Source: Candidatus Poribacteria bacterium (GTDB lineage: Bacteria; Abyssobacteria; SURF-5). Taken from it: a stretch of 64,000 bases of DNA. Location: the NCBI GenBank assembly GCA_016215705.1, contig JACRIR010000209.1, positions 16,530 to 80,529 of the forward strand, read 5' to 3'. The notes beneath the pieces were generated by a model, which worked only from the letters and a program-made list of their open reading frames with translations, made no database searches and was not told the origin of the DNA. A program made the translations under genes and the position numbers. Within the stretch, counting starts at the first letter, position 1; the number at the start of each line of letters is the position of its first letter. Below are positions 19,732 through 50,273 of the stretch, piece after piece.

Positions 19732-20400
19732 CTAACCCCGGGTGCCCACGCCCGCCGCGCCTTGTTTGGGCCGCAGGGTGAAGGCATAGAAGTTATACGG
19801 ATAACTGTAATCGACGTGGTGGACGTCAACAAAATTAAAATCGACCCGCAGCGCATCCTCAAATGTCCTACGGTCTTTGATGCATTTCCCTCTATCAAGC
19901 TTACATATTATTCGGGCGGGAATATCCAGAACGTTTTCGGGCAACATGCAATCCACAATCACCACGATAGCCTCGCTTTTGCAGACACTGGCGATTTCCT
20001 TGAGGGCCTTTTTCATGCTCTCCATGTCAATATGATGAAAGATAACAATGCTGAATACGAAGTCGAAAGTTTCTCTCTTAAAGGGTAAAAGGGTAACGTC
20101 TCCACAAACGAATTGCAGCCGCTTTTGCGACTTGCCTGCGAGATACTTCGGATTGATATCGAGCGCGTAGTAGTTGCTCTCGAACAAATGAGCGTACCTC
20201 CCTGTGCCGCACCCGACGTCAAGGATTCTTCCCCGCGCGTTCTCAGCAAGAAGCCTTTCAATATGCTTCAACGCTCTTTTCCTGCCAATCGAAAAGATTT
20301 CTTGGGAAAGATCATATATAAACGGAATCTCAAGGACTTGGTATATCTTCCGAGACAGCCTCTGGATCAGTCCCTGGTCAGGTTTTCTTTCGGATGCCAA
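19732..20400 (-). CDS. Class I SAM-dependent methyltransferase
   Basis: 222 aa; SAM-binding motif ILDVGCGTGRYA. Confidence 0.8.
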   Translation of the reverse strand: MASERKPDQGLIQRLSRKIYQVLEIPFIYDLSQEIFSIGRKRALKHIERLLAENARGRILDVGCGTGRYAHLFESNYYALDINPKYLAGKSQKRLQFVCGDVTLLPFKRETFDFVFSIVIFHHIDMESMKKALKEIASVCKSEAIVVIVDCMLPENVLDIPARIICKLDRGKCIKDRRTFEDALRVDFNFVDVHHVDYSYPYNFYAFTLRPKQGAAGVGTRG

Positions 20401-20464
20401 CGCAAGAGTCCTCCCTGTTTCAACCTGGTCTGGCGAGGTCGGATTTGGGCTTCTTCACACAGGT

Positions 20465-23386
20465 TCAATGTGGCGCTAATTTTATCCGGCACTCGCGCAT
20501 CGATGTATCTATTCTCACGGGCACAATGTCGAACCTGTCCGATGACCCTGCCATGAAAACGAGTTTGTTATACACCGGCTTCATGCGACCGTCGGGAACA
20601 AGCTGCAGGAATCTGAAGCTGTGGTCTCCTTTCGCAAGCTTGAGAATCGCCTGCGCTTCCCATCGATCATTCTCCGGTGGGGGAGATTCGGAAGCCGTAT
20701 TGAATACCCTGACCGTGAATTCATTGTCAACAAAGAGTTGATATGCCTGGGGCGGGAACTCCATCAGCAGATCATAGATTCCATCTTCTTCCAAATGAAT
20801 CTTCGTCTCAAGGAGTTGAGGCGTCTGGAAATTCGTCTTTCCTTCTGTGCCTTCCACGGTTTGCGGATTATAGGGTGTAATTGGCTCAAAGGGCCGGCGA
20901 AATCCTTCGACGTGCTTGCTCGATGCCAACGGCGCGTAACAGAAGACCAGAATCAGAACCAGCGCAACGCCTTCGCGATATTTCCGATCTGAGAGGAGAA
21001 TTCCAAAAACAGAAAGCAGTCCCATGATACTGAGAGCTAACCCGAGATAGAATGCGCGCGGCTGATAAGAGAAGGTTACCGTGTGTTTTCCGGCCGGAAC
21101 GGGAACGCCGCGGAAGACGTAGTTTGTCCGGTATATTCTCACCGGTTCTTCATCGACGCTTGCTTTCCATCCCGGGAAGAAGACCTCGCTCGAGAAAAGG
21201 AAACCCGGACGCGGAATGTCAATTTCCACCCTGACAAACTCGTTTCGGGATTCAATCATCCTGGCTTCATTCTTGATCTGCAATAATCTGTCCGTTTCGT
21301 TGACGGCCCTCTCCGTTCTCCCACTCCTCAATGCGGAAAACTCATGCGGCAGGTCTTCCTCGATGTAGTTCCTGTTCAAGGGGTCAAACTCGGGGGAAAG
21401 CATTCTCTCAATGATGTCGGCGCGCGGGAGTTTCTCCACCCCGTAGACAACGAAATGCCTCGGGAGGAAAAACTCCACCCCGAATCTGGTGTTCAACAAA
21501 CTCCTGACTCGCCTGCTTTCCCGCGTTTTCAAGAAGAAATAATTCGTGTCAAACAGGCTCCCTTCATAACCAGTCATGGAATAGGGGGGATTGTAACTGG
21601 GCAGCGTGCTGTTGACGCAGAGGAAAGGCTGGATCATGAGACTGTCGATCCTGCCTATTCTCTCCAACTCCGGCGCCGGAATGTGGTAGTAGTTCGCGTT
21701 GAGACGATTGGTTAGTTGAGACCTCGCATCCTTGATCCCGGGGTCGGTCTTGCTGTAGTAAGCGAAACCGACCCGCGGGCCGGCTTCCTTGCGAAAAGTG
21801 GAATGCGACAAGTCTGCGACCACTATTGCCACCGCGAGCCAGGGAAAGATGCGGCTTTGCCTTCCCCTCCGGAAACCGGATAATAGAACAATCAGCGCCA
21901 GGAATGAGACGATGGCCCACACGGTATAATCGTGGCGGTAGAGTCGGCTTTGCATGTAAGGCGCGAGCCCGGGAAAGAGCCAAATAATCGCACAGATTGT
22001 CAAGAGCGCTGCGACTGCGCTCATTACGGCCAATTTGACATTATTCGGAACCGTCCCCTTCCCTGTCAGCGTGTCCATCCCATAGCCTGAGAGCGCTGCG
22101 ACGCAAAACATGTTTAATATTAGAGTTCTTCCCGGATTCGTGAGCCCCTTGAACAAAGGAACGTAATCGTACACAAATCTCTGAAGCGGAAGACTGAACG
22201 CGGATTTTGTCGAGTACACGGCTGTTATCAGAATGGCGAAGACAAAAAACTTCTTATGCTTGTATCGCTTGTCTTGGGATATAACTCCAACGAACGCGAG
22301 AATGAGCGACAGCAGTCCCACATAATGATCTCTCTCCGTATATGCGATGGAAGGCAAAATGTAGCCCAAGACAGTTTGTGCGGGTGTGCATCCGTAAATC
22401 AGCGTTTCGGCCAGGTCGAACCCACCCTGCCTGTTATAGTGCGAAATATACTCCAGGCCGGGCAGCAACTGAACGGAGACAAGACAGATTGCCAGAGCGA
22501 TTGCCACGCCAAAGTATAGAAGGGCCAGGGCATATTTCTTTCTGTCAAAGTAGGAATGATGAATCTGTTCCGCAATTGCGTTGGTGCGTAGGGCCGCTGT
22601 GTGCGCGGATTTGTTCTCAGAGGACTCCCGGCCTGTGTCGGACTTTGGCCCGCGAACAAGGCGCCCACACAATTGTGCGACGGAGTCATGCTTCTCGACG
22701 AGGGCGAAAGCAAGAATGAGGGCAATGAATCCCACGGAATAAATGAAATTCGCCGGGTAGTTTGCGAAGTATGACATGGCAAATAGCAGGGAAAGACATG
22801 CGATATGTCTCCTGCGGGGCTGTTGAAGCAGCCTGAATGCGAATAGAACCAGCAACGGGAGCCACATGATACTGTGCGCCGCGCCCGCAGTCCTCATTAT
22901 ATCTTCCAGCCGCAGATTGAATCCCCATACAATAGCGCCCACCAGAGCGCCCCATCTGTTGATCTTCAGGTCCCTCATGAGAAAGTAGAAAAAGCAGCCG
23001 GTCAGTCCCTTCGCCGCAAAAAGATAGACGATGAATCTGCAAAACGGCAGTATGTGGTCAGGGTTATTGAACTTGGACAAGGCAATGGTGAGTGGATAAA
23101 GGACGCCCGAGAGGGGAGAGGCAAAATATGGCGCCCCAAACCCCCAGTTCGGGAGCCATAGCCCGAGTTCTCCGTTGAGCAAGAGGCCGGTGCTCGCGGC
23201 AAGGATATTGTACGTCTGGACGAAGTCGTTCCCGAAAGGGTAAATCTTCGGAAACGGTCCAAAGGCAAAGAAGACGTTCCAATTGACGAGGAGAGGGAGG
23301 AAGAGTATCAACGCCACGGGGGCGAGATCAAACTTATATTCTCCGATGGCCTGGCTTATCCGCGTTTTCAACGAGAACTCCTGCAA
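20465..23386 (-). CDS. YfhO-family large membrane glycosyltransferase-like protein (GT-C fold)
   Basis: 973 aa, >10 TM segments in the N-terminal half, large C-terminal extracytoplasmic domain ending in the YfhO-like segment ...FFPGWKASVDEEPVRIYRTNYVFRGV... Confidence 0.65.
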   Translation of the reverse strand: MQEFSLKTRISQAIGEYKFDLAPVALILFLPLLVNWNVFFAFGPFPKIYPFGNDFVQTYNILAASTGLLLNGELGLWLPNWGFGAPYFASPLSGVLYPLTIALSKFNNPDHILPFCRFIVYLFAAKGLTGCFFYFLMRDLKINRWGALVGAIVWGFNLRLEDIMRTAGAAHSIMWLPLLVLFAFRLLQQPRRRHIACLSLLFAMSYFANYPANFIYSVGFIALILAFALVEKHDSVAQLCGRLVRGPKSDTGRESSENKSAHTAALRTNAIAEQIHHSYFDRKKYALALLYFGVAIALAICLVSVQLLPGLEYISHYNRQGGFDLAETLIYGCTPAQTVLGYILPSIAYTERDHYVGLLSLILAFVGVISQDKRYKHKKFFVFAILITAVYSTKSAFSLPLQRFVYDYVPLFKGLTNPGRTLILNMFCVAALSGYGMDTLTGKGTVPNNVKLAVMSAVAALLTICAIIWLFPGLAPYMQSRLYRHDYTVWAIVSFLALIVLLSGFRRGRQSRIFPWLAVAIVVADLSHSTFRKEAGPRVGFAYYSKTDPGIKDARSQLTNRLNANYYHIPAPELERIGRIDSLMIQPFLCVNSTLPSYNPPYSMTGYEGSLFDTNYFFLKTRESRRVRSLLNTRFGVEFFLPRHFVVYGVEKLPRADIIERMLSPEFDPLNRNYIEEDLPHEFSALRSGRTERAVNETDRLLQIKNEARMIESRNEFVRVEIDIPRPGFLFSSEVFFPGWKASVDEEPVRIYRTNYVFRGVPVPAGKHTVTFSYQPRAFYLGLALSIMGLLSVFGILLSDRKYREGVALVLILVFCYAPLASSKHVEGFRRPFEPITPYNPQTVEGTEGKTNFQTPQLLETKIHLEEDGIYDLLMEFPPQAYQLFVDNEFTVRVFNTASESPPPENDRWEAQAILKLAKGDHSFRFLQLVPDGRMKPVYNKLVFMAGSSDRFDIVPVRIDTSMRECRIKLAPH

Positions 23387-23484: not shown

Positions 23485-25650
23485 CTATACATGTCTTCTC
23501 TTCTGTGAAGTCCATGAGATGAGAAAAAAGGCTGCCATAAGCCCAAGGCCGGCAGCGGACATCCAGGCTCCGACAAGCAGACTTCTCGGTCGAAAAGAAA
23601 ACTCTACATCGTGCCTTCCCGCGTCAACGACACAACCCATGAAATCCCCATAGACTCGCACTACCGGCCTCTCCCTTCCATCCACGCTTGCTTGCCAGCC
23701 TTTATGATAACTTTCGGACAGAATCAGGAGTTGTTTTGTTTCGGCCAGAGTCGCGACTCGAATCTTGCCAGGATGATCATGCGTGATGGTCGCCTTGCCC
23801 GGCGTACCCTCCTGCAGCGCAACCGACGAGGGAACGAGCGCCGTAGTTTCGACATCGATAGTATCGATGTCACTCTTGGGGTCAGAACCGACGAGCGCCT
23901 GTGCAACCAGTCTTGCCCTTGGAAGCGGAGCAGGCACTTCCGCTCCATAGACGCTTCCACTCAACGCATACAGCCCTTGCTTGTGTTTCTCCCAAACCCA
24001 ATGCACGTTTGCCACCCGCAAACGTGCGAGACTCATAGGTTCAAGTTGTTGCCTGGGCGGTATGCAGACAAACCCGCCCGCAATTCGGACCCCTTTCATG
24101 AGCCAGACGTTGTCGTCCGACATGAGACGGTACCGCGAGACGTCGGGAGGCGTTGGCGCAAAACCGTAGAAGCCTTCGAGCTTTGTTCCCGGCTCATTAT
24201 CCCGGATATAAGTCAACCCGTAGATACCCTGATCCGCGACGGCGAACAGAATCATCCCTGCGAAGGCCCATCGTTTTCCGCGCGCCGCCATAATAATAAT
24301 TGCGCCCGCCAGGATCATGAGAAGCGGATCGGAGAGGATAAGGTTTCTCGATGCGACACCCGAAGCAAAGTGTTGAGCCAATGTCGGGGTCTTTTCGGCC
24401 TTGGCAAGGAGAAAGAGTACGGCGAGCGATATGCTTGCGAGGGGGGCCAGCCCCAGCGGCCAAAGCTTCCTCCATGCGAGTCGGCCGCAAGATTGCACAA
24501 TCCTTGAGATGTCCGTATAGGCAATGGATGCCCCAATGGCCAAGGCAAGTTGAAACAGCAGGATATACCGGCAGGGCGCGCGAAATGCTCCAATAACCGG
24601 CACGAGAGTCTGGAGCCGATACAGATAGCCGTGCTGCCCCAGGGAAAGAATTCCCGACAAGGTGGCCAACCCGATGACTCCCGTCGCAAGTGTCCGCAAA
24701 GCCCCCAACTCCTTTCTACGGACTATGAGCAGGGCCAATAATATCACTGGAAGTGTCCCTATATATATCTTTAGTTCATATGGGATTCCACGAAACGCAA
24801 AGTCGTTGAATGAATATGGCGACAACAATTGCAATATGTGAATCGGGCGCAGACTGGGCCAGTAACGAGACCATGCTGGGTCAGTCCGACTAGTAATAGA
24901 AAGGGCGTCCCATGACGGTATAAGTTGAATGCCGCCCGCCAACACGCCGAGCAACTTGGCGATTCCAAGCGCCGAAAGCCGCCCCCAACACCGAAGCGAG
25001 AGAAGCAGGAGGAGTGTATACAAGGCTTCGGCCGACGATGAAATCCAGAAGACCTGGGGATGACCCAGAAGCAGTTGGGATGCTGTGAACAGTCCCACGC
25101 CTAACTTGGCAAATGCCACTTGGCGCCCATCGATCCCCCGCAACGCAACATCGATTGAAAACAAAAGCCAGGGAATATGCGCAGCGACGGAAACGGCATT
25201 ATAATGCACATAGTGCAACAGGTTAAACCCCGAGAATGTAAATACGAGTGCCCCAAATACACTCGCGTCGCGCGGAATCTGCCAGCGTCGCAAGAATAAG
25301 AACATGCCAGCCATCATGAAAGGATAATTGAGAAGCATCTCAAGGTTGAATGCTGCTCCGAACGGAAATATGCTGTAGAGAATCAGATGAAGGGGGTGGA
25401 GCATGCCCGCTCCACCGTCGCCATGGAGGTAGAATCCACATAGGACACTTGGAAGCCACAGGAAGCTGTCGCCTGACGCCAGACTCTGCGCATAGAAAAA
25501 GCGCATGGGGAGATGGTATCTGCTAAGGTCATCGTGTTTGTAGACTTGACCCTTGAACAAGGGCAGTCCGAGCAGACAAAGAATGATTAAACCCGCCGCC
25601 AGCCCCAGCCAAAAAGAACGGTTCTCTGTTCTGCGTTCATCCATATTCAT
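23485..25650 (-). CDS. YfhO-like membrane protein, paralog of the upstream gene
   Basis: 721 aa; C-terminal ...YHKGWQASVDGRERPVVRVYGDFMGCVV... parallels the C-terminus of the 973-aa protein. Confidence 0.65.
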   Translation of the reverse strand: MNMDERRTENRSFWLGLAAGLIILCLLGLPLFKGQVYKHDDLSRYHLPMRFFYAQSLASGDSFLWLPSVLCGFYLHGDGGAGMLHPLHLILYSIFPFGAAFNLEMLLNYPFMMAGMFLFLRRWQIPRDASVFGALVFTFSGFNLLHYVHYNAVSVAAHIPWLLFSIDVALRGIDGRQVAFAKLGVGLFTASQLLLGHPQVFWISSSAEALYTLLLLLSLRCWGRLSALGIAKLLGVLAGGIQLIPSWDALSITSRTDPAWSRYWPSLRPIHILQLLSPYSFNDFAFRGIPYELKIYIGTLPVILLALLIVRRKELGALRTLATGVIGLATLSGILSLGQHGYLYRLQTLVPVIGAFRAPCRYILLFQLALAIGASIAYTDISRIVQSCGRLAWRKLWPLGLAPLASISLAVLFLLAKAEKTPTLAQHFASGVASRNLILSDPLLMILAGAIIIMAARGKRWAFAGMILFAVADQGIYGLTYIRDNEPGTKLEGFYGFAPTPPDVSRYRLMSDDNVWLMKGVRIAGGFVCIPPRQQLEPMSLARLRVANVHWVWEKHKQGLYALSGSVYGAEVPAPLPRARLVAQALVGSDPKSDIDTIDVETTALVPSSVALQEGTPGKATITHDHPGKIRVATLAETKQLLILSESYHKGWQASVDGRERPVVRVYGDFMGCVVDAGRHDVEFSFRPRSLLVGAWMSAAGLGLMAAFFLISWTSQKRRHV

Positions 25651-26022: not shown

Positions 26023-27591
26023 TCATCTGCGGTTAATATCACTGTTTCGGCTTATCGCGTAGATGCGAATCGCCGGGCCGCGCGATCTGCCGGCTTCGCT
26101 CGGCCATTCACGCAAAAGCGGAAACTTGAACAACGGATCGTAGGAGCGAAAGCCAAACGCGCGATACCTCGGCCACTGCATTTCGCTTATGACGACGTAG
26201 TCATAGTTCAGAACTATTTCCTCGAATGGAATTCGACTGATCGTCCACGCCCATCCCGTCCTGAACTTTCCGGCGAAATACAGTTGCGGACAGTATGCCT
26301 CGTACAATATGCGCGAGCCCGCAGGAACAGCCGCAGTTATCCATTCGTATGCCAGCGTTCGATTGTCCGGCCGTCTCATCTCTTGCCATGTCGCGCGTGT
26401 CCTTTGAAACAGAATCCAACCGGCGAGAACGAAAACGATAATCAAGGGTAACTTGGCGCGGACCGCTGTTCGTTTCCTCTCCAAAGCTGACAACGATGTC
26501 CCGAAGGCGCCCCACACTCCTACTGCGGTCAGGCAACAGAGAGCCGGAAGCGATGGGAGAAGATGACGCGGGAAATATACCTTGGCAGTGCTGACCATTC
26601 CCAGAAATAAGATTGACGCAGCGCCGGCCAGAGCGAGCGGCTTCCTGGTAGTTATCTCTCGAGCCGCAAGCGGAGAGAGCAAGGCGAATAAGACAAGAAA
26701 TGAATGCTGATTGAGAAGGCTATTGATTGCCTTAAAAAGGCTTACCCCTTGATCTGCGCCGGGATGACCGGATGAATAGTGCACGAAGTCATAGGGCATT
26801 CCTACAGCGGGGTCGAGAAAAGTCTTGATGTCCAGAATGGAGTATGGCGTGGTTACGACGAAAACGGCAATAGACAGCAGTACGGCAAGCGTGAGCCTGC
26901 TCAGGACCCAACGAAACGGTTTCCTGACAAGCCATATGGCCAGAGGAACAGCAAAAAGAACCGCTGCGCCGTTGTATTTGGAGCCCGCGGCCAGTCCGCC
27001 AAATATCACGGCGCTCCAGAGATGGCGCTCTCTGCATTGCCCTCGCTCTGCCGAATCTGTAAAGGCTACCAGTTGCATCAATGACGCAGTGACGAAAAAG
27101 GCCATAGGCATTTCCAGTGTCACATAAGCTGCGCTTTCACGAACAAGGTTGCTCCCGATGAATGTGAGCCCTGCCAGTGAAGCTAAGAGGGGTGAAGTCA
27201 TACGCGACGTAAGCCGCAGAATCAGATAGAGCGTGCCTAAGGAGAAGCAAACCGTCGCAATGCGCGCGGTGTGGTAAATATCGAACACTTCGGGATTTAC
27301 CCCGCGCACGCTCAGGGGCAGACACAACGGGAGAGGAGCGTCGAAAAGAAACTGGAGAAGCTTCAGGATGCCCGCATGCGCGTAGATGACTAGCGACGGG
27401 TAATGGAACCAATGTGGATTCAAATCTCCCGTCAGCGCCATCCGCGCCGCTCGACTGATCACATCGGGCTCATCCGCATGATAGATGAATGGGGCGTTGA
27501 TGTTCGAGTAGCTCCCCCAGTACACTGCTGCAAACGCAAGCAACGCTACATGCGTCGCGAACGAGGAGTAATCACGCCGGGCGGTTATCAA
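26023..27591 (-). CDS. GT39/ArnT-like (PMT_2) membrane glycosyltransferase
   Basis: 522 aa, multi-TM; N-terminus ...YHADEPDVISRAARMALTGDLNPHWFHYPSLVIY. Confidence 0.7.
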   Translation of the reverse strand: MITARRDYSSFATHVALLAFAAVYWGSYSNINAPFIYHADEPDVISRAARMALTGDLNPHWFHYPSLVIYAHAGILKLLQFLFDAPLPLCLPLSVRGVNPEVFDIYHTARIATVCFSLGTLYLILRLTSRMTSPLLASLAGLTFIGSNLVRESAAYVTLEMPMAFFVTASLMQLVAFTDSAERGQCRERHLWSAVIFGGLAAGSKYNGAAVLFAVPLAIWLVRKPFRWVLSRLTLAVLLSIAVFVVTTPYSILDIKTFLDPAVGMPYDFVHYSSGHPGADQGVSLFKAINSLLNQHSFLVLFALLSPLAAREITTRKPLALAGAASILFLGMVSTAKVYFPRHLLPSLPALCCLTAVGVWGAFGTSLSALERKRTAVRAKLPLIIVFVLAGWILFQRTRATWQEMRRPDNRTLAYEWITAAVPAGSRILYEAYCPQLYFAGKFRTGWAWTISRIPFEEIVLNYDYVVISEMQWPRYRAFGFRSYDPLFKFPLLREWPSEAGRSRGPAIRIYAISRNSDINRR

Positions 27592-36602: not shown

Positions 36603-36693
36603 GGTCAAGCTCTATAAGCTTCCTGTCTTGCCCCCGGTCGCCTTGGTGAAAGCAGAATTCCAAAAGATACACCCGGGCGCCGGACTAGGACTG

Positions 36694-38443: not shown

Positions 38444-38504
38444 GCAGCGCCGGGAGCAGCCCGGGAATGCGCAAACTCGCAATGGCGATCATACGAGCGA
38501 TGTC

Positions 38505-39665: not shown

Positions 39666-39676
39666 AGGCGCTTCAA

Positions 39677-42849: not shown

Positions 42850-44085
42850 TCAAACCCCTTCTCTTTCCCTTACCGCTTTCTCCAACATGTTTGCGTCTAC
42901 AAAGAACTTGCAGGCCCAATTGGGAAACTCATACTTCAAATAACCGCCGTCCACAGGAAACGACCCCTTTATTGCGCCCCGCTTCTCGGACGAGCCTTCA
43001 CATATCATGCTTCGCCGGACATAACGGGTCAAGGCGTATGCGGCATCCCGGTATCGTTCATCTCCCACAAAATCGAATAGCATCAGAAAGCAGATGGCGA
43101 TTTGTACGCTTCCCGTCAGGCAAGCCCAGTTCGCCGCGCTTCTCCAATCAGGATAAAGCCTGCCTGGCAGGAAGCCATCCTCTCGCACAGCGCTGAGAAC
43201 ACCATCGGCCGTTTTGCGGGATGACTCTAACAGGACAGCGTCCCGGTTGAACCTGTAAAGCTCAAGAATACCCCTCAGCGCGTAACCCAACGTATGTGTC
43301 AACGGTCTTGTGGGATCGCCGGTGCAACACCTTTCAAACCAGCCATTGTCTCTTTGCAACTTCAGCGCCCACTTTACGTTTGCAGTCGCGGAATCAGCGT
43401 AAGGTTTGTCCTGCTCTAAACGCGCTGCCTCCAATATTGCCCATGCGACGTGCGTGTCGTACGCTTTCTCACCCCTAAAGCGAACCCCGGGCTGGTTCCT
43501 GCGCCAGGCCCCATCTTTATCTTGTGTCTTGACCAGCCAATCGGCCGCTCGAATCATTGGCTCGCGATATATGTCTCCGAATTCGCGGACACCGCTCGCC
43601 AGACCGAGCAGGATTTGGCCGGTGTCAAACGTCGCAGGGAGAGGCGGCGTCGCCCCGATGAGTCCTGCTTGGAAGCACCCGTCAGGAAATTGAATTGAGA
43701 CGAGCCAGTCAAGCATGCGTTGAGCCCGCTGGCGCGCCCACGTGTTGCCACTGAGTCCGGCGTACGCCAACATGGTCGGCACGATGTAGCCGGTTGTCTC
43801 AGGATACGATGCCGCCCAGCCTTCGATGAGGCTGTAACGCGCAGAAACCCCGCCGTCATGCGAAGTGGAACAGTCTTGAGCAAACCTGAGCCAATTCGCT
43901 CCGAGTTCGATCGCCTTTTCAATGCCGGGATCTTCTGAAGGAAGCCCGAGTCGGTCGCGGCGGGCTTCAAGCCTTGCATTCTCAGGCAATGTATATTTGA
44001 TCAGTTTTGCGGCAATCCAACGGAGAGATTCGCTGGTCTTTCTGAGCATAAGCGCAGCCTGAAATCGGCCCCCCCAACTGCACAA
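42850..44085 (-). CDS. Prenyltransferase/squalene-cyclase-like alpha/alpha-toroid repeat protein; function unknown
   Basis: 411 aa; repeated QW-like motifs VSIQFPDGCF, KTQDKDGAWR, KLQRDNGWFE. Confidence 0.5.
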   Translation of the reverse strand: MCSWGGRFQAALMLRKTSESLRWIAAKLIKYTLPENARLEARRDRLGLPSEDPGIEKAIELGANWLRFAQDCSTSHDGGVSARYSLIEGWAASYPETTGYIVPTMLAYAGLSGNTWARQRAQRMLDWLVSIQFPDGCFQAGLIGATPPLPATFDTGQILLGLASGVREFGDIYREPMIRAADWLVKTQDKDGAWRRNQPGVRFRGEKAYDTHVAWAILEAARLEQDKPYADSATANVKWALKLQRDNGWFERCCTGDPTRPLTHTLGYALRGILELYRFNRDAVLLESSRKTADGVLSAVREDGFLPGRLYPDWRSAANWACLTGSVQIAICFLMLFDFVGDERYRDAAYALTRYVRRSMICEGSSEKRGAIKGSFPVDGGYLKYEFPNWACKFFVDANMLEKAVREREGV

Positions 44086-44320
44086 TCGAGCAAATCAATC
44101 ACGAAACATTTGCAGTATACACGCGCAAGAAAAGCCATGTCAATGCCGGATTAAGGGATAAGTGCGCCAAATAAGAGGTGCTGAGTCTGCCCCGAGTTTG
44201 ACAGGCCAACATGGTTCGACTATAATTTCAAAAACAGGCGTTTGTGTTTGCCGTAGTTGCAACCAGCCGCTATCACGCAACAAAAACCTCGGATTTCAAG
44301 AACTTGCACAAACTATTCTG

Positions 44321-45709
44321 ATGCGTAAAATCCCCCGTTTCAAGATATTCCTTCTTCTCGCGCTGTCTGCAACCCTCCTGCAATGTGCTGACAGGCCACA
44401 AGTTTCAGTCAAGAACGAGATGAATGTTCTCCTTATTACAATCGATACTCTTCGCGCCGACCATCTCGGCTGCTACGGCTACACTCAGCACGTTTCGCCC
44501 TCTATTGACGCCTTGGCCCATAGGGGAGTTCTATTCAGCAACTGCATAAGCCAATGCCCCATGACCCCTACGTCGCACGCTTCCATACTCACTGGTCAGG
44601 ATCCCTACCGTCACGGCGTGCGTGAGTTCCTCAGCAAAAGACTCAAGCGAGATACTCCCACTCTGGCGACCCTTCTGAAGAATGCCGGCTATCAAACCGC
44701 TGCCTTCGTCAGCGCATACTCTCTTGAGAAACAAAAATATGGGCTGGACAACGGGTTCGATGTTTATGACCAGAGTTTCTGCGAGGAGCAAGACGCCGAA
44801 CACTTCGACCAGGAAAAACAAAGGGTTAATTCTCAGCGCCAACAGAACCCGGTGCAGAGAAGGGCCGACCTGACCGCGTCTCTTGCCGTGGACTGGTTGC
44901 GCCGGATTGACAAGCGCCCGTTCTTCCTGTGGGTCCACTACTTTGATCCTCATGAGACTGTCCTCGTGCCTCCAATCATTCCCGGTCTCTTCGAGTATTC
45001 GGTCAAGGGCCCACTGACTCCTGTTCATCTGCAAATGTATGATGTCGAGATAAGGTTCGTGGACTTGATACTTAATACTTTGACCAGCGAGCTCTTCAAA
45101 ATGGGATTGGGACAAAACACCTTGATTGTTCTGACTTCCGACCACGGGCAGGGGCTTGACAACCACAACTACGAGTACCATACTCGCGCTCTCTACCAGG
45201 AACAAATCCATATTCCCTTGATCCTTGCCGGCAAACCGATACCCGTCGGCGTGAAAGTGGATGCTCTCGCCAGGTCGACGGACATCCTTCCCACCGTGCT
45301 TGATATCCTCGGCTATCCGGATGATAAGATTCCCCTCAACTTTGACGGCAGGAGCCTGCGAACTTTCTGGGAAAACACAGGTCGCGAAAAACCCGCTGAA
45401 GTCACGGCATACAGCGAAACTTTGTATTCAAAACTCAGAAGCGGCGGCTCGCCTATGTATTCGATGATTGACGGCGACATGAAGCTGATCTATCACGCCG
45501 AAGCGCAATATAAGAACGAAATGTATGACCTCGCCCGCGATCCGCTCGAGATGAACAACATATTCACTCAGCAGCCGAAGCATGCGAAAAAACTGATCGG
45601 AGAAATCAATTCTCTGCTGAAAGGAACCACGATTTCCACTCAACGGGCAAAAGCCGGGCAGGACAAGGATTGGGAGAACAAGCTGAAATCTCTCGGATAT
45701 ATGAACTAG
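44321..45709 (+). CDS. Sulfatase-like alkaline-phosphatase-superfamily hydrolase/transferase, secreted; lacks the FGly C-x-P-x-R motif
   Basis: Start at MRKIPRFKIFLLLALSATLLQC signal peptide; metal-binding N-terminus LLITIDTLRADHLGCYG; CPMTPT in place of CxPxR. Confidence 0.75.
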   Translation: MRKIPRFKIFLLLALSATLLQCADRPQVSVKNEMNVLLITIDTLRADHLGCYGYTQHVSPSIDALAHRGVLFSNCISQCPMTPTSHASILTGQDPYRHGVREFLSKRLKRDTPTLATLLKNAGYQTAAFVSAYSLEKQKYGLDNGFDVYDQSFCEEQDAEHFDQEKQRVNSQRQQNPVQRRADLTASLAVDWLRRIDKRPFFLWVHYFDPHETVLVPPIIPGLFEYSVKGPLTPVHLQMYDVEIRFVDLILNTLTSELFKMGLGQNTLIVLTSDHGQGLDNHNYEYHTRALYQEQIHIPLILAGKPIPVGVKVDALARSTDILPTVLDILGYPDDKIPLNFDGRSLRTFWENTGREKPAEVTAYSETLYSKLRSGGSPMYSMIDGDMKLIYHAEAQYKNEMYDLARDPLEMNNIFTQQPKHAKKLIGEINSLLKGTTISTQRAKAGQDKDWENKLKSLGYMN

Positions 45710-47469
45710 TGTAAGGAGTATAAGTTCTCTAGCGCCTCTTTCAGCGCTTCCGGCCGACGCGGCGATACTTCGCCGCCCTCATAAACGAGAAACGGGGAAC
45801 CAACATATCTCTCCCAATCCCTCTGATATCGACTGTCCTTCCCGACTATCCCAAGTTGCTTCACCCTCCGCCAGCGCTCGGCGCAAACCTGATCCTGCAA
45901 CGAGCGCTCCGGAAAGTAAATATGCCCGCCCAGTGCGCCAATCTTGAAGTATGCTGATTTCCCATAGGACAGCGCCCCATAGGGTATCATCTCGACGGTT
46001 ACGATTCGGACGGCGTCGAGCGACTCGTCGCCATAGAACAGGCGCAGAGCGTACTTGAGATTGTCAAACCTGAAAACGAGCGCACCCTCAACGGAATCGG
46101 GAACATTAAGGAAGAAAAACGTCGTTCCGGATCCCGGGGCCGGGTAGATTTGCGTCGTCTGCTCAACGACGTCACCCGCAATGTCGGAAGCATGCTTCCA
46201 TATGGTCTGTCTTTGTTTGAGATAATAGCAGCTTGTGCCGGCAAAAGCGATCGCTAGGACGCATCCGAGAACAATTGAATATCTCCTCGATCTCGGGGCC
46301 GCCGACTCAGAAAGCCCGAACAAAGCGACCGAAATCAATATCGCCGCCGCACTCGATCCTAGAACCATGTGTCTCTCCGATGGCACCAGTCCCAGGCAGA
46401 GGACCGGCGCGGCGCTCACCATAATCCACCATAAAAGGAACGTTGCCCTGAATCTCTTCAGGATCAACGGAACGACTACAACTGCCAGGATGGTGACTCC
46501 TCCGACTACCGGAAAAACCACTCCATTTCCTGCAAGCCTGTCGAACCAGTTTAGCGCTAAAGCCCAGTCGATTGGGGACAGGGTCATAATGAGTGAGTAC
46601 CACAATCCGACTATCAGAATTCTCCAGTCGAAGGCGGTCAGCGCGGGCGGCAAGTGTACCTGCCGCATTACCACGTGTCGGACGGCCACAAAAAGGACGC
46701 CAAGCGCAATAAATGGCAGACAGCTTGTCGCGCTTCTCATTATTGCGTTTAGCAAGCGGGAATACACGTCCGCTGTCGTCGGACCAGGACTCTCGCTCTG
46801 GCAGGGATGACCTCGATGTTCTCGAATGACTTGTGTATTCCCTCCGGCTATTGCCCCATCTCTGACAGGGTTGCTCGCTCCCAGGAGCATGTCATAGATA
46901 AAGACAATTATCGGGAGAGAAATAGCTGATTCCTTTGTCAGCAACGCGCATGCGAATAAGACCAGTGAGCACGCATATGAGGGCGTAGAACGATCCTGCC
47001 GCCATCGAATGAAACATATGAGCGATGCCAACGTGAGAATATTTTCAACAGCCCCATTAATGCTCGATATCCAGAAAATAGCTTCGGCGTGCACGCTCGA
47101 GGTCAGGAATATGACTGCCGAGACGAGGCCCAACAGCCATCTGCCCGTGATACGCAATCCCAAAACGTAAACCTCAAAACACAGAACAGCAAAACAAATG
47201 AGGCTCATCATGTGGTAGCCACCCGACCACAAATGAAACACTCTTCCTAATAACTCGAAGAAGACTTTGATTCCTGGCCGATAGTAGAGGCCCCACGACG
47301 GCCTCAGAAATTCCGAAAGCCCTTCCCGCCAGCCGACACTTTCTTGATGGAGCGCATGATAGATCACGTTGTAATCATCGGAATTGAACCCATGCTTTAT
47401 CGTCCCACCTAAAAGAATGAAGACTAAAGTGAAAAGCAGGAAAAGGAAGACGGCTTTTTTCAGTCCCAC
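45706..47469 (-). CDS. TMTC/PMT-like multi-TM membrane protein (candidate GT-C glycosyltransferase)
   Basis: 587 aa; ...SSVHAEAIFWISSINGAVENIL parallels the HP(I/V)HxE(S/A)V region of the 39677 protein; >10 TM segments. Confidence 0.55.
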   Translation of the reverse strand: MGLKKAVFLFLLFTLVFILLGGTIKHGFNSDDYNVIYHALHQESVGWREGLSEFLRPSWGLYYRPGIKVFFELLGRVFHLWSGGYHMMSLICFAVLCFEVYVLGLRITGRWLLGLVSAVIFLTSSVHAEAIFWISSINGAVENILTLASLICFIRWRQDRSTPSYACSLVLFACALLTKESAISLPIIVFIYDMLLGASNPVRDGAIAGGNTQVIREHRGHPCQSESPGPTTADVYSRLLNAIMRSATSCLPFIALGVLFVAVRHVVMRQVHLPPALTAFDWRILIVGLWYSLIMTLSPIDWALALNWFDRLAGNGVVFPVVGGVTILAVVVVPLILKRFRATFLLWWIMVSAAPVLCLGLVPSERHMVLGSSAAAILISVALFGLSESAAPRSRRYSIVLGCVLAIAFAGTSCYYLKQRQTIWKHASDIAGDVVEQTTQIYPAPGSGTTFFFLNVPDSVEGALVFRFDNLKYALRLFYGDESLDAVRIVTVEMIPYGALSYGKSAYFKIGALGGHIYFPERSLQDQVCAERWRRVKQLGIVGKDSRYQRDWERYVGSPFLVYEGGEVSPRRPEALKEALENLYSLH

Positions 47470-47536: not shown

Positions 47537-47591
47537 ACAAGGATAGCCGTGTGTCTCGCAATAGACAAACCCGTGCATCGGGTTAGGGCTC

Positions 47592-48326
47592 CTAATGCTC
47601 TTTTGTCGCAAGCAAAAGCAACGAAAGCCCGAATGGCAAGTCACAGCGTCCCAGCAGCCAGCGCTCCATTCGCATCGCTCCCAACAGAAGCTGGTTCAGC
47701 AATCGCAGGTCTTCATGATATTTTATTCGATAGTTTGCCGAAGCCTTCCTGAGTCTTCCGAAGGTGAGCCTCGCAAGCGCAACCGGCCCAAAAAGAAGAG
47801 TATTGAAATAGCTGACGCGTTTTACCCTGAAGCCCGCAGACTCTACTTTCCCGAGCAGTTCCTTCTTCGAGTATCGTCGCTTGTGGTGGAGTGCGGCGTC
47901 ATGAGCGCTCCACAGACTCTCATACGCGGGAACGCTCACGAGCAGATTTCCTTTAGGCGCTGCGACTCTGAACACTTCGCGGAGCACGGCATTATCGTCC
48001 TCACAATGCTCGAGCAAGTCGGCCGCAATCAGCAATCCGAATGCGCCCGACTTGAAGGGAAGCGCCCCTGCGTCGGCCCGGCAGAGTCTCGAAATGCCCG
48101 TGCCGCGGCAGTAAGCGAGCGCGCCCATGTTGCAGTCCATCCCGAAGATGCGTCCTGCCGCCGTGAATCGTTTCATCATGAGACCGGAGCCGCATCCGAT
48201 GTCCAGGATCGGCCTGTCTTTCAACGAGTCGGTTTGTGCGCTGGAAAAGAGAATATCGCGTGTGCCGACAAACCACCAGTGATTCTCGCCCAGCCGGAAC
48301 AACTGAGCGTACTCCCCAGGATTCAT
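47592..48326 (-). CDS. Class I SAM-dependent methyltransferase
   Basis: 244 aa; SAM-binding motif ILDIGCGSGLMM. Confidence 0.8.
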   Translation of the reverse strand: MNPGEYAQLFRLGENHWWFVGTRDILFSSAQTDSLKDRPILDIGCGSGLMMKRFTAAGRIFGMDCNMGALAYCRGTGISRLCRADAGALPFKSGAFGLLIAADLLEHCEDDNAVLREVFRVAAPKGNLLVSVPAYESLWSAHDAALHHKRRYSKKELLGKVESAGFRVKRVSYFNTLLFGPVALARLTFGRLRKASANYRIKYHEDLRLLNQLLLGAMRMERWLLGRCDLPFGLSLLLLATKEH

Positions 48327-49240
48327 TCGACCTGCTCCATTCTTATGCCGTACACTAGCATAATGTCGAAAGGATTGATATATACCACGCGGTCACCCAG
48401 CCCAAGCGAGCGGGTCAGCCACCCCGCGACTCTCTCCACCGTTGAGCTATACAGCCCTGCTCTCTTTATGAAGAAATCCACGTCTATATATTTCCCCACG
48501 TGTTCCAGGCGAACGGTCTCAAATCGGGACTTGGCGAGCAGGCGCTTCAATGTTCCGGGAGTGAAATAGTACAGGTGTTCCCCCTGTTTGATCCCCATCC
48601 AACTTGAACGCCACACTCGAGCAGGGACACTTGCGATGTTCGGAGTAGTAAGCGCGAGGAGCCCACCGGGCCTCAGAAGGCTGTGTGCCTTTTTGAACTC
48701 CTCTGCCGGATCAGGGCAATGCTCGATATAGTCCCACATGGTGACAACGTCAAAGCTCGCTGGCTCCATGTCGGCATTGGCCAACAAGCCGCAGAACACG
48801 TCCACACCAAGGTTCTTGCGCGCAAAGTCGCATGCGAACTCCGATATCTCGACCCCCTGCGCGCGCCAGCCGAGCTCCCTTGCTACCTCGAGTGAGAAAC
48901 CGGTTGCGCAACCGATGTCCAACAACCTTCCCTTGCGATGGGTCCATCCCTCGATTTCCTTGAGACGTCTGTGGAACGTTCTCGAAATCTTTTCGCGGTC
49001 GGCGATGTAATCATCATAGCCCACGGCCCCCGAATCAGCGCTCCGGAAGTATGACTCAGAGTAAAGCTGCCCCATCTCCTGCGAGTCGGGGATATTGTCT
49101 GCTCTCACGAGTCCGCATCCATCGCACTTGAGTAGCCCGAGATTGGGATACACGTATCGGGCTGAACCGGACCCGCAGAGGTTGCACGGTTGGAAGTCAA
49201 TCACTTGACGGTGGGAGTTCATAGCGCTTCTTCCAGTCAT
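48323..49240 (-). CDS. SAM-dependent methyltransferase with N-terminal Cys4 zinc ribbon
   Basis: 305 aa; CNLCGS...CDGCG ribbon, then LLDIGCATGFSL; paralog of the 28900 protein. Confidence 0.8.
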   Translation of the reverse strand: MTGRSAMNSHRQVIDFQPCNLCGSGSARYVYPNLGLLKCDGCGLVRADNIPDSQEMGQLYSESYFRSADSGAVGYDDYIADREKISRTFHRRLKEIEGWTHRKGRLLDIGCATGFSLEVARELGWRAQGVEISEFACDFARKNLGVDVFCGLLANADMEPASFDVVTMWDYIEHCPDPAEEFKKAHSLLRPGGLLALTTPNIASVPARVWRSSWMGIKQGEHLYYFTPGTLKRLLAKSRFETVRLEHVGKYIDVDFFIKRAGLYSSTVERVAGWLTRSLGLGDRVVYINPFDIMLVYGIRMEQVE

Positions 49241-49946
49241 TGATGCGCACCCTTACGATCTCGCAGATCATCGGAAAAGTGTCTCGCAGGACGCTGACTC
49301 TTGTGAGAGGTGAGTTCTTCCAACTAACTGCGACCTCGCCAACGCGAAACCCGAACTTCCTGGCAAGGTAAAGAGCCTCCACGTCGAAACCAAAGCCGTT
49401 GGTGCGCGCAGCCGAAAAAATGGTTGTCGCTGACCCATTCTTGAAATACTTGAACCCGCATTGGGTGTCCAGAATGTCCGGTATCGCCAACAGGCGGACC
49501 AACCGGTTGAATACCTTGCCGCTCAATTCTCTGTACCAGGGACGCCAACCAATGATTGCCGATTCCGTCAGAGCCCTTGAGCCGACAACCACATCCAGCC
49601 CCCTTGAGGCATGCTCTTCGAGTGTCTCCAACTCCGCTATCGGGGTGGCAAGGTCCGCATCAGACAAAAGTACGCTATCAGACCGCGCTTTCAGCATGCC
49701 AGCGCGGACGGCAAAACCCTTTCCCCGATTCGGATGATAGCTGACAAGTCTTACTCCACCATCTTTCTCCGCGTATGCGCCCACGGCGCTATCAGTTGAG
49801 TCCGTGCTTCCATCGCTCACAACAATTATCTCATAGTTTAATCTGCGCTCTTTGAGGTAAGCGGATATGGCTTCAATCGTGGGGCCGATGCGTCCAGCTT
49901 CATTGAAAGCGGGAATCACTACGGAGAGGTCCAGCTTGTGGGTCAT
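49197..49946 (-). CDS. GT2 glycosyltransferase (dolichyl-phosphate beta-glucosyltransferase / polyprenyl-P sugar synthase-like)
   Basis: LSVVIPAFNE...IIVVSDGSTD GT-A motifs; start set at Met (MTHKLDL); the ORF track extends to 50051. Confidence 0.75.
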   Translation of the reverse strand: MTHKLDLSVVIPAFNEAGRIGPTIEAISAYLKERRLNYEIIVVSDGSTDSTDSAVGAYAEKDGGVRLVSYHPNRGKGFAVRAGMLKARSDSVLLSDADLATPIAELETLEEHASRGLDVVVGSRALTESAIIGWRPWYRELSGKVFNRLVRLLAIPDILDTQCGFKYFKNGSATTIFSAARTNGFGFDVEALYLARKFGFRVGEVAVSWKNSPLTRVSVLRDTFPMICEIVRVRINDWKKRYELPPSSD

Positions 49947-50273
49947 GGAAAGAAAACTCGCGCCATTGCATCTCTTATCAATGTGATCCTCTTCTTTCGA
50001 TTCTATGCAACAAACTGACATCATTATAATTGCGGCCTGAGATTGTGTCAAATAACGAGATTCTTAGCCTTCACTCCGCATCCATCATTCCTTGTCATTT
50101 CCCCGTTCCCTCTAATGTTGCTTCTTCTATTCTCCCTCTTTAGCCGACTTTCGACCTTCGACTTGTCTAATTCCCTTTCGTCCTGCTCCTTCTCATTCAT
50201 CATTCATCATTGCATGTCGCCCCCCTTCGCCTTTTCCCCCTCAGCTTTCGCCTCTTACCCCGTCACTTTATAT

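Follow-up and report, generated by a model that had tools for sequence, protein, structure and literature searches.

A conserved GT-C-rich locus that probably encodes a multi-component envelope-glycosylation system in uncultured Hydrogenedentota/'Abyssubacteria'

A conserved glycosylation locus and its gene content

A locus of about 30 kb, at positions 19732-50051 of a 64-kb window (the whole stretch of 64,000 nucleotides that was analysed, from contig JACRIR010000209.1 of a bacterium labelled 'Candidatus Poribacteria'), is judged by sequence comparison to be a genuine gene cluster, one that has been kept in a small group of uncultured bacteria, and it probably encodes a lineage-specific (Hydrogenedentota/'Abyssubacteria'), multi-component transmembrane system for glycosylation of the cell envelope. 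This reading draws on the gene content, on the fold and motifs of the GT-C glycosyltransferases, on the family affinity of the GT2 proteins and on the conserved gene order. In a mechanical list of open reading frames (ORFs), with which the coordinates of an initial annotation of the window agreed, the locus comprises 22 large ORFs that abut or overlap and which encode five membrane proteins of GT-C type, two GT2 proteins resembling polyprenyl-phosphate-sugar synthases, four GT4 glycosyltransferases and six S-adenosylmethionine (SAM) methyltransferases, together with a MOP/Wzx flippase, a WecC-like dehydrogenase, an AAC(3)-family acetyltransferase, an alpha/alpha-toroid protein and a protein of sulfatase fold but without the formylglycine motif (Table 1; genes are named here by their first coordinate). 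They are laid out as a minus-strand left arm (19732-28549), a plus-strand central run (28738-41659), a variable centre and a minus-strand right module (45706-50051).

Pfam assignments were judged against the gathering threshold (GA) and NCBIfam assignments against the equivalog cut-offs. The six GT-C proteins that the initial annotation had counted (five in this interval and one at 7072-9171) were borne out by Pfam matches, by acidic motifs after the first transmembrane (TM) helix, by topology and, for one protein of 587 amino acids (aa), by fold and remote homology. Its four GT4 enzymes, Wzx flippase, AAC(3)-like enzyme and toroid protein all have Pfam matches, the Zn ribbons that it had seen in two methyltransferases are there as CxxC...CxxC motifs in 28738 and 48323, and the two GT2 proteins that it had read as DPM1-like lipid-phosphate-sugar synthases have ArnC, DPMS and GtrB as their closest solved relatives. 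It had counted seven methyltransferases where the interval holds six (19732, 27608, 28738, 36349, 47592 and 48323), and its UDP-sugar 6-dehydrogenase does belong to that enzyme family but is WecC-like (of the UDP-N-acetylmannosamine (UDP-ManNAc) type) rather than a UDP-glucose dehydrogenase.

The cluster had also been described as an island, which its setting does not support. GC content hardly changes along the window (0.51-0.56). Housekeeping genes lie on either side, with tig-clpP-clpX-engB, genes for aromatic amino acids, a histidine kinase, cheR/cheB and tatCA to the left, and HU, thiE, an ABC system resembling MacAB and a TamB-like protein to the right. The locus has neither a tRNA nor an integrase at its borders; the four tRNAs of the window all lie at 522-1234 in an Rfam scan at gathering thresholds, which detected no riboswitch or regulatory RNA in the locus. 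A horizontally acquired genomic island was therefore rejected on composition and conserved flanks, and we regard this as a chromosomal locus with tatCA and HU/thiE as its borders, both of which are also kept in relatives. The presence of TamB and MacAB marks the host as diderm.

None of the families Wzy_C, Bac_transf, Glycos_transf_4, Wzz, Poly_export and ABC2 was found among the large ORFs scanned across the 64-kb window, nor did the window yield an initiating phosphoglycosyltransferase (PGT), a regulator of chain length, an outer-membrane exporter or a ligase, although such genes could lie elsewhere in the genome. Thus the locus does not amount to an O-antigen or capsule locus complete in itself, which agrees with the initial view that it is not a standard one. 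There was likewise no STT3 Pfam match in the window that would indicate an STT3/AglB oligosaccharyltransferase.

Conservation of gene order in related bacteria

Related contexts were retrieved via homologues of the 587-aa GT-C, of the GT2 proteins and of the long YfhO protein, and the genes, which the initial annotation had allowed might be scattered in relatives, proved to be syntenic. The block GT2(49197)-methyltransferase(48323)-methyltransferase(47592)-GT-C(45706) is intact in eight contexts, namely the complete Hydrogenedentota genome CP070779, two contigs of 'Abyssobacteria' SURF metagenome-assembled genomes (MAGs) and five further MAGs. In seven of these eight it is convergent with a run ending in the tetratricopeptide repeat (TPR)-fused GT-C (TPR-GT-C ... 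GT4-GT4-GT2-dehydrogenase), and in CP070779 the block stands alone; L008, a ninth and short contig, stops at the GT-C gene, so that only the convergence of this gene with TPR-GT-C is visible. An orthologue of the TPR-GT-C (51-66% identity) is convergent with the 587-aa gene in all eight distinct contigs that extend past that gene. The GT2 31709, MOP flippase 35079 and TPR-GT-C 39491 genes lie in one tight co-directional run, presumed to be an operon, which is kept in L002, L004, L005 and L009.

The interior of the operon varies, with between one and five additional GT4s along with a methyltransferase, a MOP flippase and (in L002/L006) a YfhO orthologue, as is expected of a species-specific glycan. 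The left arm is represented on one contig, L031, where PMT, YfhO and YfhO are kept between tatCA and the dehydrogenase (tatC-tatA, long YfhO (48%), GT2, ATP-grasp, DegT, short YfhO (52%), PMT (55%), dehydrogenase (72%), GT2 (78%)). In L004 the PMT orthologue is beside the dehydrogenase, and thiE and HU are beside the GT2, as in the window. Methyltransferases 19732, 27608 and 28738 are not conserved with the locus, and no orthologue of 19732 was present in the related loci examined.

Ahead of the four-gene module of CP070779 (L001, 3005-7641) come a sulfatase with the canonical CxPxR motif, a prepilin-type (N_methyl) protein and genes for phage head-tail connectors. In the GT2-GT4-GT4 block of the same genome (L011, 10001-12949) the second GT4 is truncated and fragmented E1 dehydrogenase genes lie nearby, and this block may be decaying. 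The named close relatives of the locus are all Hydrogenedentota/'Abyssobacteria', apart from one 'Lindowbacteria' fragment, and since all of them carry labels other than that given by NCBI, 'Ca. Poribacteria' may be unreliable as a taxonomic label. 'Abyssubacteria' has been described as a lineage within Hydrogenedentes, in a genomic description that does not mention the locus (PMC6121073).

The membrane glycosyltransferases

All six membrane proteins are polytopic and carry an acidic motif immediately after TM1 (WDE in 7072, NDF in 20465, HDD in 23485, ADE in 26023, YDD in 39491 and SDD in 45706), and an acidic motif right after the first TM helix is a hallmark of GT-C enzymes.

The 587-aa protein (HZA56_18000, from a MAG contig of 86,460 bp labelled 'Candidatus Poribacteria bacterium') matched nothing in Pfam or NCBIfam. 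A search of 5.8 billion protein clusters gave 28 further entries at 42-71% identity, making a family of about 29 sequences, one of which (P0010) carries PF13231, and the next-nearest relatives were TPR+PMT_2/PMT proteins (E 1e-11 to 1e-4). In an alignment of 27 members FNSDD (28-32, directly after TM1), YRP (63-65), KES (179-181) and PSERH (363-367) are invariant, and of these FxxDD, YRP and KE are, we take it, TMTC/PMT_2 signatures too. There are at least nine hydropathy peaks, and the AlphaFold2 model (pLDDT 86.4, pTM 0.87) has long helices through residue 441; when it was compared with the PDB using Foldseek the top 34 matches were all GT-C proteins (AglB, PglB, STT3, Pmt4, ArnT, DPY19, ALG9, AftA and Emb) at Foldseek probabilities of 0.94-1.0, with TM-scores of only about 0.4. 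The protein also has a family-specific alpha/beta C-terminal domain of 145 aa that is predicted to be periplasmic.

A profile search of 1.84 billion representatives with this family recovered only two full-length representatives and fragments; past the family itself there is a break in E-value, to 4e-53, beyond which 37,690 superfamily members form a continuum and align in the TM region only. The family is encoded in only 6 of 185,579 species-representative genomes, and all four of those with a contig reaching upstream of the gene carry the GT2-methyltransferase block. Because its motifs are invariant, its fold is predicted to be that of GT-C enzymes, its homologues are few and its nearest outgroup is TPR+PMT_2, the protein appears, from sequence and model together, to be the founding member of a rare new TPR-less subfamily of TMTC/PMT_2-like GT-Cs. 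Its conserved adjacency to a DPM1-like GT2 supports the prediction that its donor is a polyprenyl-phosphate-linked sugar.

The other GT-C at the convergent junction, TPR-GT-C 39491, has about 11 TM helices, an F-x-x-DD loop after TM1 and C-terminal TPR repeats, with the motifs FVGYDD, YQPIR and HPIHVES. Its orthologues carry PF13231, and its architecture, with a C-terminal TPR domain on the extracytoplasmic side, matches that of TMTC and TfpW. No protein of the locus has a Pfam match to DUF1736.

Of the left-arm enzymes, long YfhO 20465 has at least nine TM helices and six orthologues at 40-49% identity, and its counterpart in L031 (48%) is beside tatA/tatC; homologues of the YfhO proteins are annotated PF09586. 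It is about 250 aa longer than the neighbouring YfhO, with an extended soluble region separating its TM blocks, and its best Pfam-aligned stretch is only the last ~50 residues. Orthologues of short YfhO 23485 (52-55% identity) were found in L002/L006, within the GT4 operon, and in L031; a metagenome scan with this protein gave only distant relatives (at most 39% identity) without informative synteny, and the left-arm synteny was obtained via homologues of the long form. PMT-like 26023 has orthologues at 55% identity that adjoin the dehydrogenase gene in L004 and L031.

Two further observations concern the YfhO proteins. P0335 (1357 aa) is a natural fusion of MOP-flippase domains (Polysacc_synt, Polysacc_synt_3, MurJ) with a YfhO GT-C domain, a hint that MOP flippases might hand lipid-linked sugars straight to YfhO enzymes. 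In L031 (6418-9976; JGI 3300041086) a DegT-type aminotransferase, an ATP-grasp protein and a third GT2 lie immediately upstream of the long YfhO gene, in a position that methyltransferases occupy in the window, which suggests that the long YfhO of that genome has its own amino-sugar or amidated donor.

Genes for aromatic amino acids, a histidine kinase, CheR/CheB and Tat stand between the locus and the remaining GT-C, 7072, which was rejected as a member for lack of both synteny with the locus and an orthologue in the related loci.

Donor synthases, methyltransferases and the central operon

GT2 31709 is the most conserved gene of the locus (orthologues at 74-89% identity). It has two C-terminal TM helices (243-261 and 277-295), as in GtrB/ArnC, and its best solved matches, by full-length alignment, are ArnC (2e-20), Pyrococcus DPMS and GtrB. 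An outer shell of homologues at 50-59% identity is widespread, and those from other phyla at 55-58% include one beside YfhO and TPR-GT-C genes (L012) and one beside PMT_2 (L013); because these two adjoin GT-C genes in the large genomes of other bacteria, the pairing of such a GT2 with a GT-C is, on gene order, general. In L012 (1-16002; ENA ERZ21831104, a 10.1-Mb contig) the homologue (57%) lies between YfhO and two TPR-GT-C-like genes, and the group follows immediately downstream of genes of a type IV pilus (those for T2SSE ATPase, T2SSF, a kinase like PilS, a sigma-54 regulator and an N_methyl pilin), an arrangement reminiscent of TfpW-type pilin glycosylation.

The second synthase, GT2 49197, is the first gene of the four-gene module and is without TM helices; it probably starts at Met 49946 to give 249 aa, the length of its orthologues (58-72% identity), and its best solved matches are DPMS (1.8e-13), GtrB and ArnC. 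Two methyltransferases follow it. That of 48323 has the Zn ribbon CNLC...CDGC and orthologues at 58-75% identity, and it aligned, Zn domain included, with the NDP-sugar 3-C-methyltransferase 5t64 at E 5e-7, too weak for a substrate to be called; otherwise PDB sequence searches with 47592 and 48323 gave only generic class I methyltransferase matches. A module of this composition (GT2, two methyltransferases and a GT-C) predicts a methylated lipid-linked sugar donor. The other Zn ribbon, in 28738, reads CLEC...CPAC (residues 62-79), and the 36349 methyltransferase has an orthologue in L007 (63% identity) whose alignment starts at residue 78. None of the six has a signal peptide or a real TM segment, and the only other methyltransferase domain nearby is in the CheR fusion (15641-17509), a chemotaxis gene.

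The conserved plus-strand operon is headed by dehydrogenase 30360, which scored 452 and 427 bits with the NCBIfam UDP-ManNAc dehydrogenase models against 215 for UDP-glucose dehydrogenase AglM, and has orthologues at 72-76% identity in L004, L009, L010 and L031. As the enzyme is WecC-like, an N-acetyl-hexosaminuronic acid is a likely component of the glycan. Flippase 35079 passes the NCBIfam MOP flippase cut-off (325 bits against 273) and is found in the equivalent place in L002, L004, L005 and L009, with none in the L010 locus. Downstream, GT4 37232 has orthologues only in L007 and L008 (55-58% identity) and GT4 38424 has only paralogue-level matches (about 26%) among relatives. When the GT4s were searched against the PDB and NCBIfam, the matches were generic ones to retaining GT4 enzymes (BshA, PimA, PimB', MshA, stp3), all under the cut-offs, and such matches do not discriminate among acceptor models.

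The variable centre

The AAC(3)-like, toroid and sulfatase-like genes are not conserved with the locus, and the first two, with no orthologue in the related loci examined, are window-specific inserts. The AAC(3)-family protein scored 124.8 bits with NCBIfam AAC_3, under the cut-off of 270 for a resistance enzyme, and may N-acetylate an amino sugar. The sole PDB matches of the toroid protein were weak ones to squalene-hopene cyclase residues 469-611 (E 2.5e-7). Sulfatase-fold protein 44162 probably starts at Met 44321, followed by a signal peptide, and at the aligned sulfatase C/S-x-P-x-R site reads CPMTPTSHASILTG (...MTPTSH...); it thus has no formylglycine motif, as initially annotated, and because of this a role as a phospho-ester transferase or hydrolase, within the alkaline-phosphatase superfamily, is more likely than one as a sulfatase. 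A similar protein, likewise without the formylglycine motif, is encoded within the operon of L008.

Table 1. Genes of the locus and the outlying GT-C gene, with window coordinates
Coordinates	Strand	Predicted product	Evidence and remarks
7072..9171	-	PMT_2/ArnT-like GT-C, 699 aa	Pfam PMT_2 53.5 bits (PMT also matched); WDE motif
19732..20400	-	Class I SAM methyltransferase, 222 aa	Pfam Methyltransf_11 E 6.3e-20; last gene of left arm
20465..23386	-	YfhO-like GT-C, long form, 973 aa	Pfam YfhO 65.8 bits (GA 28.5)
23485..25650	-	YfhO-like GT-C, short form, 721 aa, ~10 TM	Pfam YfhO 52.1 bits (GA 28.5)
26023..27591	-	PMT-family (GT39-like) GT-C, 522 aa	Pfam PMT 34.6 bits (GA 22.7)
27608..28549	-	SAM methyltransferase, 313 aa	Pfam Methyltransf_11 E 3.6e-19; without TM segment
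28738..29781	+	SAM methyltransferase, N-terminal Zn ribbon, 347 aa	Pfam Methyltransf_11 E 1.3e-16
30360..31619	+	NDP-sugar 6-dehydrogenase, WecC-like (UDP-N-acetylmannosamine dehydrogenase type)	Three UDPG_MGDP_dh domains
31709..32683	+	GT2, predicted polyprenyl-phosphate glycosyltransferase (ArnC/GtrB/DPMS-like)	Pfam Glycos_transf_2 E 6.9e-28
32670..33869	+	GT4, conserved	Pfam Glycos_transf_1 E 7.9e-33; orthologues 59-70% identity
33812..35095	+	GT4, conserved	Pfam Glyco_trans_1_4 E 2.8e-28; orthologues 66-77% identity
35079..36602	+	MOP-family (Wzx-type) lipid-linked glycan flippase, 507 aa	Pfam Polysacc_synt_3 E 1.9e-91
36349..37224	+	SAM methyltransferase	Pfam Methyltransf_11 E 4e-13; listed ORF over-extended, likely start TTG 36580
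37232..38443	+	GT4, variable part of operon	Pfam Glycos_transf_1 E 2.3e-34
38424..39665	+	GT4, variable part of operon	Pfam Glyco_trans_1_4 E 9.5e-26
39491..41659	+	TPR-fused TMTC/PMT_2-like GT-C	Last gene of plus-strand operon; likely start ~39677
41913..42845	-	AAC(3)-family N-acetyltransferase	Pfam Antibiotic_NAT E 3.7e-46
42850..44085	-	Alpha/alpha-toroid (squalene-hopene-cyclase C-terminal-like) protein	Pfam SQHop_cyclase_C 30.1 bits (GA 26.1)
44162..45709	+	Exported sulfatase-fold (alkaline-phosphatase superfamily) protein	Pfam Sulfatase E 2.9e-45
45706..47469	-	TPR-less TMTC/PMT_2-like GT-C, 587 aa, HZA56_18000	Motif, fold, remote homology
47592..48326	-	SAM methyltransferase, 244 aa, four-gene module	Pfam Methyltransf_11 E 1.1e-15; orthologues 62-74% identity
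48323..49240	-	SAM methyltransferase, N-terminal Zn ribbon, 305 aa, four-gene module	Pfam Methyltransf_23 E 2e-25
49197..50051	-	Soluble GT2, DPM1/PpgS-like predicted polyprenyl-phosphate-sugar synthase	Pfam Glycos_transf_2 E 3.6e-25

Neighbouring genes of the window

To the left of the locus, a 3-dehydroquinate synthase II gene (PF01959, E 2.8e-122) adjoins one for a DeoC/LacD-family aldolase (9699-12009, minus strand), which looks like the archaeal-type amino-dehydroquinate entry to aromatic amino-acid synthesis in a bacterium; either the aldolase ORF or a GH32-like ORF on the opposite strand (11335-12672) is over-called, because the two overlap. Between the outlying 7072 GT-C gene and the locus there is also a small minus-strand signalling cluster (12777-18138), in which a histidine kinase with PAS and GAF domains is accompanied by a CheR methyltransferase fusion that includes PAS domains and a coiled coil, and by a separate CheB methylesterase.

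To the right, a 201-aa minus-strand ORF (50335-50940) has no family match and a low-complexity translation. It was rejected as a gene, as its tblastn matches in L004 are antisense to a called HU (Bac_DNA_binding) gene, and for that reason the real gene here is probably a small plus-strand HU gene between GT2 and thiE. Further on, at 59047-63578 on the minus strand, there are two sulfatases that, in contrast to 44162, have canonical motifs (CTPTR in 59047 and CSPSR in 61941); one of the pair has a TAT signal. Between them lies a radical-SAM/SPASM protein that also has a SEC-C motif and probably serves as an anaerobic sulfatase maturase.

Proposed mechanism and alternative explanations

For the envelope-glycosylation system that we favour, we infer the donor identity, the order of steps, the role of the flippase, the acceptor and the methyltransferase substrates as follows. 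At the cytoplasmic face the WecC-like dehydrogenase would supply a UDP-linked N-acetyl-hexosaminuronic acid, the two GT2s (one ArnC/GtrB-like with two TM helices and one soluble and DPM1-like) would each load a sugar, different for each enzyme, onto undecaprenyl phosphate, and the two conserved GT4s with the species-variable GT4 set would build or extend a lipid-linked glycan. The SAM methyltransferases would methylate sugars in the cytoplasm ahead of export. SAM is cytoplasmic and these enzymes are without signal peptides or TM segments, and so methylation must come before flipping, and the periplasmic O-methylation that had been proposed initially is implausible. The MOP/Wzx flippase would then carry the lipid-linked sugar or glycan across the inner membrane, where the GT-Cs (TPR-fused TMTC-like, 587-aa, PMT-like and two YfhO-like) would glycosylate an acceptor in the periplasm using lipid-phosphate-linked donors. 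Periplasmic or surface proteins are favoured over a surface glycan or lipid as the acceptor, by analogy and on a finely balanced judgement, because the nearest characterised relatives (PMT, TMTC, TfpW and PgfM1/M2) are mostly protein glycosyltransferases.

Several observations weigh against this proposal. No acceptor gene is evident within the locus, the C-terminal domain of the 587-aa protein had no structural match and gave no clue to an acceptor, and neither GT2 31709 nor GT2 49197 approached any of the NCBIfam GT2 equivalog cut-offs that would speak to sugar specificity. The PMT_2 match of TPR-GT-C 39491 is just sub-threshold (E 2.5e-5, 25.0 bits against a GA of 26.1). In CP070779 the GT2-GT4-GT4 block, which looks truncated, is about 600 kb from the four-gene module, so the two core modules can be uncoupled. 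A simple three-component scheme does not explain the roles of the GT4s, and the flippase could equally serve an undecaprenyl-diphosphate (Und-PP)-linked repeat unit, with a PGT and a Wzy or ligase encoded outside the 64-kb window.

That last point leads to a conventional Wzx-dependent O-antigen or exopolysaccharide locus, which is possible but on balance unlikely. Here the GT4s would build an Und-PP repeat unit with the PGT, Wzy and ligase or exporter elsewhere, and the GT2 and GT-C enzymes would add side-chain sugars in the periplasm after polymerisation, in the manner of Gtr-type seroconversion. WecA-like initiating enzymes are commonly encoded outside O-antigen clusters, the flippase does pass its NCBIfam cut-off, and the four GT4s vary in number among relatives as they do in serotype loci; modification of O-antigen side chains by GT-Cs is also well documented (PMC11127046). 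However, no Wzy, PGT, Wzz/PCP, OPX, WaaL or ABC exporter family was detected in the window or among the called genes of L002, L004 and L031, and five GT-Cs to one flippase is far more decoration than backbone machinery. Being the most conserved gene of the operon and at its head, polyprenyl-phosphate GT2 31709 looks like the initiating step rather than a side branch, and the TPR domain of the terminal GT-C has its precedents in protein glycosylation. The same absence of a diphosphate-forming initiating enzyme, from every locus examined, fits an Agl-like pathway, in which the TM-anchored GT2 would start on polyprenyl monophosphate, GT4s would extend this to an oligosaccharide that includes an N-acetyl-hexosaminuronic acid, the product would be methylated by the methyltransferase of the operon and exported by the MOP flippase, the TPR-GT-C would transfer it en bloc to proteins and the second module would add a final, perhaps methylated, sugar from a lipid-phosphate donor of its own, in the manner of AglD/AglR/AglS. 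We consider this distinctly unlikely as a whole, even though GT-Cs of the ArnT/PMT clan use monophosphate-linked donors and the conserved head and variable tail of the operon fit a conserved reducing-end core with variable outer sugars. To our knowledge no bacterial PMT_2/TMTC-type enzyme transfers an oligosaccharide, and we know of no proof of GT4 extension on acceptors linked to undecaprenyl phosphate in bacteria; there is no STT3/AglB-type oligosaccharyltransferase in the window and no flippase in the L010 locus. The components do pair one-to-one with AglM, AglJ, AglG/I/E, AglP, AglR, AglD and AglS (PMC3871713), yet by enzyme class only, with NCBIfam AglJ and AglM scores far under the cut-offs. 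More doubtful still is its explicit STT3-free form, in which a methylated glycan containing an N-acetyl-hexosaminuronic acid would be made on undecaprenyl monophosphate and transferred en bloc to protein by the TPR-GT-C, and the 587-aa GT-C would cap it with a methylated sugar from a second lipid-phosphate donor.

A lipoglycan of the mycobacterial phosphatidylinositol mannoside/lipomannan/lipoarabinomannan (PIM/LM/LAM) type, with PimA/PimB-like GT4s glycosylating a membrane lipid, a flippase exporting it and GT-Cs elongating or branching it with GT2-made (Ppm1-like) donors, would account for the lack of a PGT, and the architecture of many GT-Cs fed by a GT2 polyprenyl-phosphate-sugar synthase is that of LM/LAM (PMC11127046). 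PimA and PimB' are among the closest solved relatives of the two conserved GT4s, but such matches are generic, with BshA, MshA and sucrose-phosphate synthase scoring equally or better. As the locus contains no acyltransferase or inositol-related genes, its GT-Cs are of PMT/TMTC/YfhO rather than mycobacterial GT87/GT53/GT85 types, and the fused TPR domain suggests that a protein is recognised as partner or substrate, we consider this to be very unlikely. A chance aggregation of unrelated glycosylation and methylation genes is hardly credible and is effectively refuted by synteny. The AAC(3)-like, toroid and sulfatase-like genes, three methyltransferases and the 7072 GT-C are indeed not conserved with the locus and the two core modules are apart in CP070779, but the same gene order recurs at 46-88% protein identity in nine related genomes, both arms included, the operon genes overlap or abut, and the 587-aa family, in 6 of 185,579 genomes, is accompanied by the GT2-methyltransferase block in 4 of 4 informative ones.

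Comparison with known systems

In the three-component systems (GtrA/GtrB/Gtr* and the Citrobacter pentofuranose system; PMC11127046), as in the locus, a lipid-phosphate-sugar synthase, a flippase and a GT-C are co-encoded, the donor is linked to a lipid monophosphate and transfer takes place outside the cytoplasm; in the Citrobacter ORF15/ORF14/ORF12 system a MATE/MOP-type flippase exports an undecaprenyl-phosphate monosaccharide (PMC11127046). The locus differs in having at least two donor synthases, five GT-Cs, four GT4s and six methyltransferases, in showing no backbone pathway (Wzy or ABC transporter) and in that its GT-Cs are PMT/TMTC-like or YfhO and not GtrC/GT136.

The pairing of a GT2 undecaprenyl-phosphate-sugar synthase with YfhO GT-Cs is shared with CsbB/GtcA/YfhO and with the Pgf system of Streptococcus mutans (PgfS, PgfM1 and PgfM2), in which two YfhO paralogues modify proteins (PMC5836110, PMC8035078); YfhO itself modifies lipoteichoic acid (PMC5836110). 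The best NCBIfam matches of the locus GT2s are to PgfS and those of its YfhO proteins to PgfM1/M2, at scores that are far from equivalog level (64-91 bits against 500 for the GT2s, 24-31 bits against 1400/1500 for the YfhO proteins). Unlike these Gram-positive systems the locus belongs to a diderm host and adds PMT/TMTC-like GT-Cs, GT4s and methyltransferases.

TPR-fused GT-Cs like that at 39491-41659 are known as the eukaryotic TMTC1-4 (PMC7801869) and as TfpW, the pilin glycosyltransferase of Pseudomonas aeruginosa, which has an essential DDx motif (bioRxiv 10.1101/2020.04.19.049825). By comparison the locus has no DUF1736 match and only a borderline PMT_2 one, the 587-aa family is TPR-less with an unmatched alpha/beta C-terminal domain, and neither 39491 nor 45706 adjoins a pilin gene in the window.

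Haloferax volcanii Agl resembles the locus in combining a dehydrogenase (AglM), a GT2 (AglJ) that initiates on lipid monophosphate, further glycosyltransferases, a methyltransferase (AglP), a Wzx-like flippase (AglR), a lipid-phosphate-sugar synthase (AglD) and a GT-C (AglS) that adds the last sugar (PMC3871713). The locus is bacterial and without STT3/AglB, its dehydrogenase is WecC-like and not AglM-like, and the likeness is of enzyme class and not orthology, with 76 bits for AglJ (cut-off 325) and 215 for AglM (cut-off 670). A route from a sugar-acid or amino-sugar pathway through a GT2-made bactoprenyl-phosphate sugar to ArnT-like periplasmic GT-Cs is likewise common to the locus, to ArnC/ArnT and to the rhizobial RgtE with RgtA-D/F, in which RgtE works with RgtD/F for uronic-acid donors; ArnT/Rgt-type enzymes modify lipopolysaccharide (PMC7663294). 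In the locus, however, there are no ArnA/ArnB/ArnD-type genes and the ArnC equivalog scores 79 bits against a cut-off of 529, and its extra GT4s, methyltransferases and TPR fusion argue against a simple version of lipid A decoration.

The initial annotation had found no characterised pathway with this combination of genes, and that holds for the combination and for one GT-C subfamily, but every element of the locus has a precedent. The locus is thus not a new principle but a variant of known multi-component transmembrane glycosylation.

Significance

The literature searched contained nothing on the envelope glycans of this uncultured lineage of the deep subsurface and groundwater, for which a conserved, uncharacterised glycosylation locus is now defined. 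The locus adds a new and very narrow GT-C subfamily with a clear catalytic-loop signature, in a tight GT2-methyltransferase-methyltransferase-GT-C module. If the STT3-free Agl-like reading were true, enzymes of TMTC/PMT_2 type would be oligosaccharyltransferases, and TMTCs could be studied in a tractable bacterial model. The locus also places bacterial TPR-fused TMTC-like enzymes in a defined genetic context, which could help in working out the donor and acceptor rules of this GT-C clade.

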